Assembly (NCBI GenBank): GCA_944326585.1
Contig: CALVEN010000007.1
Span: forward strand, 282-64,281
Direction: 5' to 3'
From: Candidatus Gastranaerophilales bacterium
Lineage (GTDB): Bacteria > Cyanobacteriota > Vampirovibrionia > Gastranaerophilales > Gastranaerophilaceae
Length of the DNA stretch: 64,000 bases
Below, piece after piece: positions 15,927-39,079 of this stretch. The position numbers and the translations under genes were made by a program. Within the stretch, counting starts at the first letter, position 1, and each line of letters begins with the position of its first letter. The notes beneath the pieces were generated by a model. It saw only the letters and a list, made by a program, of their open reading frames with translations, made no database searches and was not told where the DNA came from.

Positions 15927-17087
15927 TTGAACTGCCTGAGGCACGACAACATACTGGGCATTGGTCAACCTATAAACGTCATCCCGCATTTATTGCGGGA
16001 TCTCAATAAAAATATCAAGAGATTCTTCGCTGGCGCTCAGAATGACAAAACCGTGAGAAATGTAGGTCGCCTTTACTATGCCGACAGAAAAATTAACAGT
16101 CGGGTTAGTAAACCCGACCTACAAGTGACTATGGCTCAGAATGACATAAATACCTTCCCTCGCCCTACGGGAGAGGAATTAAGGGAGAGGGGGCTATCAG
16201 CTTATGATGAGATTTTGAAACGAGTTCAGGATGACAGAGTAGTGAGCGGAGCTCACAGTAAAGAACTTAACGTCCTAACGTCTTATCGTCTTAACGGCTT
16301 TAAAAAGAAAGCCGGTGCTACGCACGTAGACATGTCAGGCAACATTCGTTGTGCTGCGTTTACCCTCGCCGAGGTGCTTATCACCCTTGCCATAATCGGT
16401 ATTGTAGCAGCTTTGACTATTCCGACTCTTATAACGAATTATCAGAAAAAACAGACTGCATCAAAATTAAAACAAACATATTCAATAATCTCTCAGGCGC
16501 TTACAATGGCTCAAGCAGAGCATGGCGACACCACAACGTGGGAAGTTGCAGGAATTTACGATACTCCTACGAATGATACTAATTTTAATCATGAAGATGC
16601 AATAACGAAATTTACTACAAAATATTTTATGCCATATGTAAAGGTGGCAAAAGATTACGGGTACACGCAATATTCAAAGATAGGTTATGATGGTGACTAT
16701 CTTCCCGCCACAGGTCTTATTTCAAACAGTCGCAGTGCTTATGGGTATATACTGCTTTTATCCGGTAATGTTTTAATTAGAATTGGAATCGGAACCGGGT
16801 GTCTGAATAACGAGATAAATCCGGACGGTACTTGTGTTACTCGAACATACAAGAATATAGTATTCAAAGTGGATATAAACGGTTTTGACAAACCTAATGT
16901 GATTGGCAAAGATGTTTTTAATATGACGTTTGATTTACGCAAAAAAGTTTTCGGATTTCATAATTACGGTATAAGTACAAGACAGCGGTATTTGGATAAC
17001 TGTAAAAGTGATGAAGATGCACAAGTCTGCGGGTATCTGATATTTTTAGACGGATGGGAAATCAAAGATGATTATCCGTGGTTTTAG
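15927..17087 (+). CDS. Prepilin-type N-terminal cleavage/methylation-domain protein (pilin/pseudopilin-like), paralog 15
   Basis: AAFTLAEVLITLAIIGIVAALTIPT class III signal/hydrophobic helix at residues ~145-170 of the track ORF. C-terminal VDINGFDKPNVIGKDVF motif shared with paralogs. The frame stays open upstream to the G9 tract. Internal ATG 16332 gives a conventional MSGNIRCAA|FTLAE leader. Confidence 0.85.
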   Translation: MNCLRHDNILGIGQPINVIPHLLRDLNKNIKRFFAGAQNDKTVRNVGRLYYADRKINSRVSKPDLQVTMAQNDINTFPRPTGEELRERGLSAYDEILKRVQDDRVVSGAHSKELNVLTSYRLNGFKKKAGATHVDMSGNIRCAAFTLAEVLITLAIIGIVAALTIPTLITNYQKKQTASKLKQTYSIISQALTMAQAEHGDTTTWEVAGIYDTPTNDTNFNHEDAITKFTTKYFMPYVKVAKDYGYTQYSKIGYDGDYLPATGLISNSRSAYGYILLLSGNVLIRIGIGTGCLNNEINPDGTCVTRTYKNIVFKVDINGFDKPNVIGKDVFNMTFDLRKKVFGFHNYGISTRQRYLDNCKSDEDAQVCGYLIFLDGWEIKDDYPWF

Positions 17088-37858: not shown

Positions 37859-37968
37859 AATTTTCCCCTCGTTTAATTATATTATAAGTTATCAAAAGTA
37901 ATAAACAAGTTAAATTTATTATTTTTTAATATTTGAAAAATTGTTTTGTTGCTTTAAATTGAAAAATT

Positions 37969-38063
37969 TGATATAATAAACCCAAAACAAGGAGAGTGTT
38001 GATATGACTAGTTTGAACAACGGGGGGGGGCGACTCCTCCAGGTACAGATAGCAAGGTTTTAG
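37969..38063 (+). promoter_or_regulatory. Pilin-family expression cassette 2
   Basis: TGATATAAT 37969-37977; GGAGAG 37991-37996; ATG 38004; G9 38022-38030; stop TAG 38061-38063. Short frame encodes MTSLNNGGGRLLQVQIARF*. Confidence 0.7.
38022..38030 (+). repeat. G9 homopolymer
   Basis: Nine G. Position equivalent to the other four tracts. Confidence 0.95.
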
Positions 38064-38239
38064 GCGGTATTGGTTGTGTAAAGTTACTAAGATACTATGG
38101 CACTAAGGCACTAAGAAGTAACAGAAAAGTAGGTCGGCATTACCATGCCGACAGAAAAGTTTACTGTCGGGTTAGTAACCCTGACCAACGCGTTACAGAA
38201 AGAATTGACACAACCCCTGAAACAAATTATAATTCTAAT

Positions 38240-39079
38240 ATGATAAACTATAAATCAGAAAACAAAAACGTGAGAGAAGTTCAGTGTAACCACACCCCTC
38301 ACTCTACTCACTCGACTCAAGCAAAACGTGTCGCGTTTACTCTGGCGGAGGGTGCTACGCACGTAGACATGTCAGACAACATTCGTCGTGTGGCATTCAC
38401 TCTGGCGGAAGTTTTGATAACCCTTGCCATAATAGGTATTGTGGCAGCTGTGACAATTCCGACGTTAATAACAAAGTATCAAGAGAAGCAGACAGTAACA
38501 AGGTTTAAGTGGATATATTCAACATTAGCGAATGCTTTCACTATGGCTGTTGCGGAAAACGGGGCGCCTGAAACTTGGGATTTGAATAGTGCTGAAGATA
38601 TGGCAAATATTTTGTCAAAATATATGAGAATTAGTGAAAAATGTTATAATACCGCTGGTTGTTTGCCTCCGGATTTAAATATTGTTGCATTGACTGGCGA
38701 AATGCGTTATACATTACCCGGCAATGCAAATTATGTAAAATCACGTTTTAATAACGGCATAAGCCTTATGTGGTTTGAGCCTCATAAAGGGTGCAGTTAT
38801 TCTTATATTGATACTGATGGCAACCAAATAGATGTAGAAAACAGTTGCGGCTCTTTGTACGCTTTTATCTCAACGAATCGTACAAACAGATATGGTCTTG
38901 ACCATTTTGTTTTTACAGTTACACCGAAGGGAATATTGCCGGGCGGTTATGATTATAATGACAGCAATATAAAGCGGAATTGCACAAAAAATTGGACATC
39001 CGATGGTAATACAAATGGTGCTACCTGCGGGGAATGGATAAGACGCTGGGGTAATGCGGATTATTGGTATGATAATTAA
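38240..39079 (+). CDS. Prepilin-type N-terminal cleavage/methylation-domain protein, paralog 38
   Basis: RRVAFTLAEVLITLAIIGIVAAVTIPTLITKYQEKQT. The frame is open upstream to the G9 tract. Internal ATG 38369 gives MSDNIRRVA|FTLAE. Confidence 0.85.
   Translation: MINYKSENKNVREVQCNHTPHSTHSTQAKRVAFTLAEGATHVDMSDNIRRVAFTLAEVLITLAIIGIVAAVTIPTLITKYQEKQTVTRFKWIYSTLANAFTMAVAENGAPETWDLNSAEDMANILSKYMRISEKCYNTAGCLPPDLNIVALTGEMRYTLPGNANYVKSRFNNGISLMWFEPHKGCSYSYIDTDGNQIDVENSCGSLYAFISTNRTNRYGLDHFVFTVTPKGILPGGYDYNDSNIKRNCTKNWTSDGNTNGATCGEWIRRWGNADYWYDN

Follow-up and report, generated by a model that had tools for sequence, protein, structure and literature searches.

A copy-number-variable 60-bp leader unit as the probable source of a doubled prepilin cleavage motif in a Gastranaerophilales pilin gene

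The window analysed here is a 64,000-nucleotide stretch of the assembly GCA_944326585.1 of Candidatus Gastranaerophilales bacterium (contig CALVEN010000007.1, positions 282 to 64,281), a genome of 1.70 Mb in 16 contigs with about 37% G+C. The genome encodes about 60 pilin paralogs with the N-terminus FTLAEVLITLxIIG, and in one of them, a gene of the window ending at 39079, the cleavage motif AFTLAE is encoded twice. With a probability of about 0.65, the two copies are the edges of a single 60-bp leader unit of variable copy number; recombination would add or remove the unit, which would be read from a start further upstream and then removed by prepilin peptidase. The unit is probably a harmless extra piece of leader, and neither a transposon footprint nor a hidden start; most likely it is translated and discarded. 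This explanation draws on the anatomy of the unit, on its presence or absence among alleles of the same locus, on the tandem arrays and the read-through found in relatives, and on the lack of a start signal at the ATG inside it.

A preliminary description of the sequence had reported that GCGTTTACTCTGGCGGAG (38333-38350) and GCATTCACTCTGGCGGAA (38393-38410) agree at 15 of 18 positions, both encoding AFTLAE, and that they enclose 42 nt, GGTGCTACGCACGTAGACATGTCAGACAACATTCGTCGTGTG, in the frame AFTLAE-GATHVDMSDNIRRV-AFTLAEVLITL. These points were borne out, and the direct repeat proved to be longer than noted. It extends six bases further left to 24 nt, CGTGTN GCN TTY ACTCTGGCGGAR, coding for RVAFTLAE and matching at 20 of 24 positions (CGTGTC... 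and CGTGTG...), and the period is therefore 60 nt. The unit thus consists of a 36-nt element, which begins with the 16-nt head GGTGCTACGCACGTAG and codes for GATHV..., and of 24 nt for R-R/K-V/A-A↓F-T-L-A-E (the arrow marks the predicted cut). The 15/18 identity of the two motif copies is not above chance for this gene family and is like that of any two pilin N-termini: the xFTLAE-coding 18-mers of the genome (n = 62) have a mean pairwise identity of 13.4/18, and 24.7% of the pairs reach at least 15/18. Their similarity arises because the same amino acids are encoded. The unusual point is that two such N-terminal motifs stand 60 nt apart within one gene. The insert had also been called palindromic; the palindromes CTACGCACGTAG and GACATGTC are indeed present, but the term was overstated, since folding of the module was no better than that of shuffled sequence (z = 0.07, and z = -0.92 for the 90-nt context), with no fold signal and no hairpin. 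No Rfam family was found for the module at E <= 1, and Tandem Repeats Finder did not call the 1.4-copy repeat of the window, as expected at so few copies.

A search of the genome for the 42-nt module, as had been proposed, located it in further places. The copy already noted in paralog 15 was recovered (16314-16355, four mismatches, ATG at 16332), but it was not the only one: a further pilin-linked copy lies on contig C1 (G000:C1:221846, G000 being the window genome), and three partial copies sit outside pilin leaders. Both other full copies are joined to ...FKKKA, and the upstream AFTLAE is absent from them. Among the 22 genomes of the genus, a search keyed on the left part of the module found it in 8, and one keyed on the right part in 12, with 40 copies in genome G010. 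The right junction is constant, ...N(I/N)RR(V/A)-AFTLAEVLITL. The left junction is variable, the preceding sequence ending in FKKKA, AFTLAE, GDKC, QVRC, HSERS or KPQ, and truncated left parts also occur. When every AFTLAE-42 nt-AFTLAE arrangement in the loci fetched was collected, 22 junctions from at least 10 species of the genus were obtained, and the period was 60 nt at all 22. Tandem arrays were found as well: in G010, locus L089 holds three units (the first two 59/60 identical) and L087 holds two, and in G008 locus L050 has three sites. Across strains and species the unit number thus ranges from 0 to 3. Moreover, in G020 the unit stands behind a canonical leader preceded by a Shine-Dalgarno (SD) site, MTKRFG↓FTLAE-GATHVGICDNARREA↓FTLAEV, and contains no ATG; in G015 it stands behind MKKV↓FTLAE-, likewise an ordinary SD-led leader. 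In these two genes the unit must be read through from the upstream start.

Some copies have another repeat in place of, or within, the left part of the module. Nested repeats of this kind were seen in L095 (G001:C5) and in G013 and G017 copies starting AATCCAAGACACGTAG, where the module is broken after GGTGCTACG.. by a repeat of about 80 nt, GAT-QRICTRTERSEFVPASKTTLLRAVHNPR-HVDMSDNIRRVA, with the frame kept. In L099 (protein P0003, a relative of the pilin from another species) one assembled allele reads ...FKKKAGATHVDMS-AIGVVAAMT...; the deletion covers the remainder of the unit together with the cleavage motif and the first part of the helix, and the allele is probably either dead or an artefact of assembly.

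The most direct evidence comes from the locus itself. Conspecific alleles were found by protein search on metagenome contigs with the neighbours dnaJ, grpE, pilin and yajQ. In the P0004 allele, present on five contigs from several samples, the leader ...HTPHSTHSTQAKRV-AFTLAE is identical to that of the window and is followed directly by VLITL (...AKRV-AFTLAE-VLITL). Left of the missing stretch its DNA equals the window over 150 nt, and right of it over 220 nt; exactly 60 nt are lacking, and a single RVAFTLAE remains (L082-L084). The one 24-mer has the three variant bases of the first window copy and the last base of the second. This junction is the expected remnant of a crossover or slippage within ACTCTGGCGGA, and equally the empty site of a 60-nt gain. 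In the P0001 allele (L098) the unit is present and its two 24-mers are 23/24 identical; this allele also lacks the CGA after the G tract described below. In the P0002 allele (L085/L086) the unit lies behind a different leader patch, and the first AFTLAE is written in other codons, GCCTTCACTCTTGCCGAA. The unit count at the locus is therefore 0 in the P0004 alleles and 1 in the window, P0001 and P0002; unit number is polymorphic, and the alleles are mosaic. P0004 is itself a recombinant mosaic: compared over window positions 38630-39000, L082 is identical through about codon 110 of the mature protein, and its C-terminal half is then only some 65-70% identical. No donor for the variant C-terminal half or for the leader patch was found in the window genome, the best matches reaching about 75%, and intragenomic gene conversion as the source of these segments was not supported. 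An orthologous empty site was also sought in other species; the grpE-adjacent site held unrelated pilins or none, and the closest relatives of the mature domain were not syntenic. Among the relatives L060-L069, the closest species carry differing pilin genes at the site between grpE and yajQ and the more distant species carry no pilin there, which makes the site an apparent hot spot of pilin gene turnover.

From these observations a mechanism can be proposed. The unit would act as a portable cassette for the cleavage site: whatever sequence precedes it, its end would be a valid prepilin-peptidase site beside the hydrophobic helix. The leader that precedes it here already ends with an AFTLAE, and the motif is therefore found twice. 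Homologous recombination or slipped replication between the codons of the cleavage site would raise or lower the unit number (0, 1, 2 or 3), and gene conversion within the family of roughly 60 pilin paralogs may also alter it. The arrangement seen in this gene would result, for example, if an ordinary leader recombined through its AFTLAE with the first AFTLAE of an array of two units. The unit would then be translated as part of the leader, either from ATG 38240 or, given an in-frame G tract, from ATG 38004, and the internal ATG would be incidental, a part of the repeat's own GACATGTC. The features concerned are listed in Table 1.

Table 1. Features of the doubled-motif pilin gene and of the related unit in paralog 15 (window coordinates).
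Feature	Coordinates	Strand	Basis or remark
Promoter-like site P1: TTGCTT, 17 nt, TATAAT	37949..37977	+	TG of an extended -10 at 37969-37970; putative, read from sequence
Shine-Dalgarno AGGAG (37990-37994) and start ATG (38004-38006) of the long frame	37990..38006	+	SD spacing agrees with the genome-wide peak
G9 tract	38023..38031	+	Frame analysis
Promoter P2, perfect TTGACA-17-TATAAT (38205-38233), 6 nt, pilin-frame ATG 38240	38205..38242	+	12/12 consensus; candidate leaderless start
First 24-nt repeat copy CGTGTCGCGTTTACTCTGGCGGAG (RVAFTLAE)	38327..38350	+	Followed by non-hydrophobic sequence; probably unused cleavage motif
60-nt unit, absent from conspecific allele P0004/L082	38351..38410	+	Alignment of alleles of the syntenic locus; position ambiguous within the repeat
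36-nt repeat element GATHVDMSDNIR	38351..38386	+	Begins with the conserved 16-nt head GGTGCTACGCACGTAG (38351-38366) of a repeat family
In-frame internal ATG within palindrome GACATGTC	38369..38371	+	Without SD or promoter at a working distance
Second 24-nt repeat copy CGTGTGGCATTCACTCTGGCGGAA (RVAFTLAE)	38387..38410	+	Predicted functional prepilin cleavage site (A↓F, between 38395 and 38396); followed by VLITLAIIGIVAAVTIPTL
Mature pilin-like protein including stop codon	38396..39079	+	Precomputed Pfam match DUF6613 on relatives
60-nt unit in paralog 15, ATG 16332	16314..16373	+	Joined straight to ...FKKKA without upstream AFTLAE

The gene is laid out as an SD-led ATG at 38004, the G9 tract, a long stop-free stretch, the prepilin-type N-terminus and the mature domain. 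The promoter-like site P1 upstream of it fell under the threshold of the promoter scan because its -35 hexamer has only 3/6 matches. As assembled (G9), the frame of ATG 38004 meets a stop at 38062 and is off; with G10 it would be on and would give a pilin with a 131-residue leader. In the seven alleles of the locus the tract is G9 six times and G11 once, all of them out of frame, with no in-frame G10. The leader would have 52 residues from ATG 38240 and 9 from ATG 38369. The second motif copy has the features expected of a processed site (38393-38455): a small residue at -1, F at +1, E at +5 and then about 20 hydrophobic residues, A↓FTLAEVLITLAIIGIVAAVTIPTL. Its score with TIGR02532 was 18-19.2 bits (cut-off 16.3), and Pfam N_methyl gave 16.6, below the cut-off of 21.2. 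A prepilin-peptidase-like gene is present in the genome, with Peptidase_A24 above cut-off in a 328-aa open frame (G000:C3:9221-9613). The first site (38333-38350) is followed by GATHVDMSDNIRRV and not by a hydrophobic helix, and it is presumably only the second site, abutting the membrane helix, that is cut.

These features agree with what is known of class III (prepilin) signal peptides cleaved by PilD/Peptidase_A24, namely the small residue at -1, F at +1, E at +5, the hydrophobic stretch of about 20 residues, the basic residues upstream and a peptidase gene in the same genome. The differences lie in length and number, as known leaders have about 5-30 residues and one site, whereas here there would be 52 or 131 residues and a second, probably unused motif; in addition, -1 is usually Gly and is Ala here.

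ATG 38240 stands 6 nt after promoter P2, whose DNA underlies a common leader module, ...RIDTTPETNYNSNM(M/I)NYKSE... (MINYKSE/MMNYKSE). Of the 35 perfect consensus promoters in the genome, 15 are this pilin module, which is found at 14 other pilin genes (e.g., G000:C1:89613, C1:134609 and C2:174117-). Further, 14 non-pilin genes, hisS-like and prfA-like ones among them, also have TATAAT followed after 6 or 7 nt by ATG, and the distance peaks sharply at 6-7 nt, which suggests that leaderless starts are normal in this genome. The composite promoter-ATG pattern was found in 12 of the 22 genus genomes, with 3-28 copies, many different spacers and none in the reversed control; since the search pattern itself enforces the hexamers, this result describes abundance and spacer diversity and is not an unbiased conservation test. 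In short-leader species a P2-type start gives the textbook precursors MKNYKSRAG↓FTLAEV and MANYKSKTG↓FTLAEV. Together with the leaderless geometry, these make it look as though the ancestral start of these pilins was a leaderless ATG after a P2-type promoter. As ATG 38240 lies downstream of the poly-G tract, expression from it would be possible whatever the tract length, and P2 with this ATG is a much better candidate for bypassing the tract than the internal ATG 38369.

The head of the unit has a wider distribution than the unit. It is at least 90% invariant in 59 copies, with adjacent codons varying at synonymous sites, and among 121 genomes sampled from the order 44 contained it (11 of 39 genera, mostly in one family), a single genome holding as many as 118 copies. 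Copies of the head also lie outside pilin genes, and it leads 60-nt and 80-nt tandem arrays with quite different tails. Two examples come from other genera, L100 (G074:C2:139115-139310) and L101 (G024:C16:58937-59192), where the head leads four-unit arrays with unrelated tails; one has a 60-nt period and lies in frame after an SD-ATG-poly-C start, reading GATHVDICTNVRETFDKLQE four times, and the other, with a period of 80 nt, lies out of frame.

Two other origins of the doubled motif have to be weighed against a recombining leader unit. It had been suggested that the direct repeat is a target-site duplication, left when a mobile element of 36-42 nt was inserted into the cleavage-site codons. 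Such an event is consistent with the empty allele L082 and the filled allele L098 at one locus (flanks 23/24 identical), with the interspersed head and with the one Y1 transposase/RAYT-like gene of the genome; moreover, some non-pilin copies are flanked by a direct repeat too, TGTCATTGCGAGG. Inspection of the flanks nevertheless argued against it, as the upstream AFTLAE is absent at two of the three genome copies and at most G013 copies. Identity of the 22 first/second AFTLAE pairs was no higher within a locus (13.55/18) than between loci (13.18; permutation p = 0.15) or in the genome background (13.4/18), and near-identical pairs were mostly neighbouring units of tandem arrays. The left end is not fixed (GGTGCTACG..., AATCCAAGA/CACGTAG..., ...GCT/GTAGG..., ...AAGT/AACATTCGT), neither terminal inverted repeats nor a hairpin were found, and the units form tandem arrays. 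A target duplication is usually 2-14 bp, which the 18-24 bp repeat exceeds, and transposition of the Y1/IS200-IS605 type is known to make none. Insertion with target duplication was thus judged unlikely. What stands of the small module proposed earlier is that it is a discrete recurring unit, that a conspecific empty-site allele exists (P0004/L082) and that its head belongs to a wider repeat family. The head may instead be a protein-binding or recombination signal, containing the 12-nt palindrome CTACGCACGTAG, at which pilin leaders and expression sites are swapped, the doubled AFTLAE being a scar. Its invariance next to synonymously varying codons, its conservation in 11 genera and the mosaic alleles of the locus, one of whose exchanged patches ends at the left edge of the module, are in favour of such a signal. 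However, no paired inverted sites and no nearby recombinase gene were seen, copies at one locus are in direct orientation, a donor of the variant segments was not found in the window genome, and other leader repeats are highly conserved too, so that recent spread or gene conversion could explain the invariance. A swapping signal of this kind is accordingly given little credence as the source of the doubled motif. A further route was considered for the left end only: slippage by 59 nt could have derived it from the GAG-GTG-CTT codons of the pilin itself. This route would bring a TAG into frame and needs an extra G, and is kept as speculation only.

The remaining alternatives concern how the doubled arrangement might work. 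The preliminary description had proposed that initiation at the internal ATG lets the gene bypass the poly-G switch, so that ATG 38369 (and 16332) would be a working start for a prepilin MS[DG]NIR..A↓FTLAE at any state of the tract. The reading itself is correct: from ATG 38369 the frame gives MSDNIRRVA↓FTLAEV with a 9-residue leader, the ATG lies nine codons before the cleavage site, and the basic residues at -3/-4 are as in true short leaders. The ATG is also kept in 61 of 86 pilin-linked copies and is the sole in-frame ATG between homopolymer tract and cleavage site in many module-bearing genes. Further in its favour, the relative L034 has an in-frame stop 19 codons upstream with no other start codon between, and seven of seven alleles of the locus are out of frame at the G tract. 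The signals of initiation are missing, however. Over 875 long open reading frames (ORFs) of this genome, SD-like 4-mers peak sharply between -14 and -8 relative to the first ATG and are at background elsewhere, and the real short-leader pilins (MKKA..., MKKG..., MTKRFG...) carry SD sites at that spacing. At ATG 38369 no SD was found at -14 to -8, only GGAG/GAGG at -22/-21; this comes from the first AFTLAE, exists only in the doubled arrangement and is lacking in the other two genome copies. The scan found no -10 box 6-7 nt before the ATG (the hexamers there are ACGCAC/GTAGAC) and no promoter inside the module, and leaderless geometry is therefore absent; the out-of-frame upstream ORF ends 307 nt before the ATG, making translational coupling impossible. 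Nor is the codon constant. No in-frame ATG lies within 14 codons before the cleavage site in 24 of the 86 pilin-linked copies, and ATG-less copies make up 18 of the 40 in G010, the codon being ACG, ACA, ACT, ATT or similar (ATT in G020 and G009). Non-pilin copies hold the ATG too, as part of GACATGTC, and G020 and G015 carry the arrangement behind an ordinary short leader and read it through. The proposed bypass by initiation at ATG 38369 is thus improbable. A related candidate, in which the module is the relic of a complete short-leader gene start, was rejected, as an SD remnant is absent and the ATG also stands in non-pilin copies. It is still less probable, to the point of being hardly credible, that both cleavage motifs are functional in alternative or sequential processing of the precursor. 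At the 22 junctions the residues of the first AFTLAE are kept despite synonymous differences (with one AFALAE and one FTFAE), but this is equally explained by repeated re-import from working pilin N-termini via recombination; moreover, in class III signal peptides it is the hydrophobic helix that brings the cleavage site to the membrane, and the first site is followed by polar GATHVDMSDNIRR. A broader scheme, doubtful though not far-fetched, joins several of these elements: the 60-bp GATHV unit as a portable cleavage-site adaptor, its head as a recombination signal for exchange of leaders and expression sites among the roughly 60 paralogs, and P2 as a second start, so that a phase-variable long precursor and a switch-independent shorter one would form a two-level or two-form switch.

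Some points weigh against the discarded, copy-number-variable leader unit as well. That the unit is translated, and that only the second site is cut, we infer from sequence features. The comparison of the window with L082, taken alone, fits a gain in the window strain or a loss in the P0004 strains, and the near-identical 24-mers of L098 together with the empty site would also be expected from duplicative insertion at this single locus. Finally, the head is conserved more than its neighbouring synonymous sites, which a neutral leader does not explain; a role at the DNA level may therefore exist, as a binding or recombination signal or through active spread.

The copy-number-variable unit shares traits with several known systems. 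Like the Rickettsia palindromic elements, it is a short, in-frame, stop-free interspersed repeat that adds residues to a tolerant part of a protein and also occurs outside genes; unlike them, it has no hairpin (fold z about 0), lies in a cleaved leader, is fused to host codons and forms variable tandem arrays. The CTCTT repeats of Neisseria opa and the repeats of Mycoplasma Vlp are likewise located in the signal or leader region of surface-protein genes and vary in copy number between strains, and the gene family here also has homopolymer switches. In contrast to opa and Vlp, however, the 60-nt period is a multiple of three, so a change in unit number neither shifts the frame nor switches expression, and since the leader is removed no antigenic consequence would be expected. 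Target-site duplications of insertion sequences and miniature inverted-repeat transposable elements resemble this locus in having a filled allele with near-identical flanks and a single-copy empty allele; here, though, most copies are unduplicated, within-locus identity is not in excess, ends are not fixed, inverted repeats are lacking, the repeat is 18-24 bp and arrays occur. Repetitive extragenic palindromic (REP) elements with their REP-associated tyrosine transposases (RAYTs, of the Y1 type) are also scattered short GTAG-motif repeats, and a single Y1 gene flanked by GTAG-hairpin repeats is present; the element here has no REP hairpin, and its tie to the Y1 gene is only putative. No report of a prepilin leader with tandem copies of its own cleavage site was found in the literature searched.

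The leaders of this family contain other repeats as well. The leader repeat VGRHYHADRK (window 38128-38152) is a GTAG-plus-hairpin repeat. The single Y1-transposase gene (IS200/IS605 or RAYT-like) lies outside the window at G000:C9:339-875, and it is both flanked by and contains the GTAG-plus-hairpin repeat of the pilin leaders, so it is a possible mobiliser of leader repeats.

For the pilus itself, the doubled cleavage motif is a small curiosity that probably has no effect on the mature subunit. What it reveals about the family is of wider interest, as the leaders of this very large group of pilins appear to be built of interchangeable repeat units that preserve the reading frame and close with a valid peptidase site. 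In this way leaders of 50-200 residues can arise without destroying processing. If P2 works, the poly-G tract would not be a simple on/off switch, and many genes regarded as phase-variable carry a P2-type start. As this is an uncultured lineage of the human gut, any handle on its surface variation would be useful.

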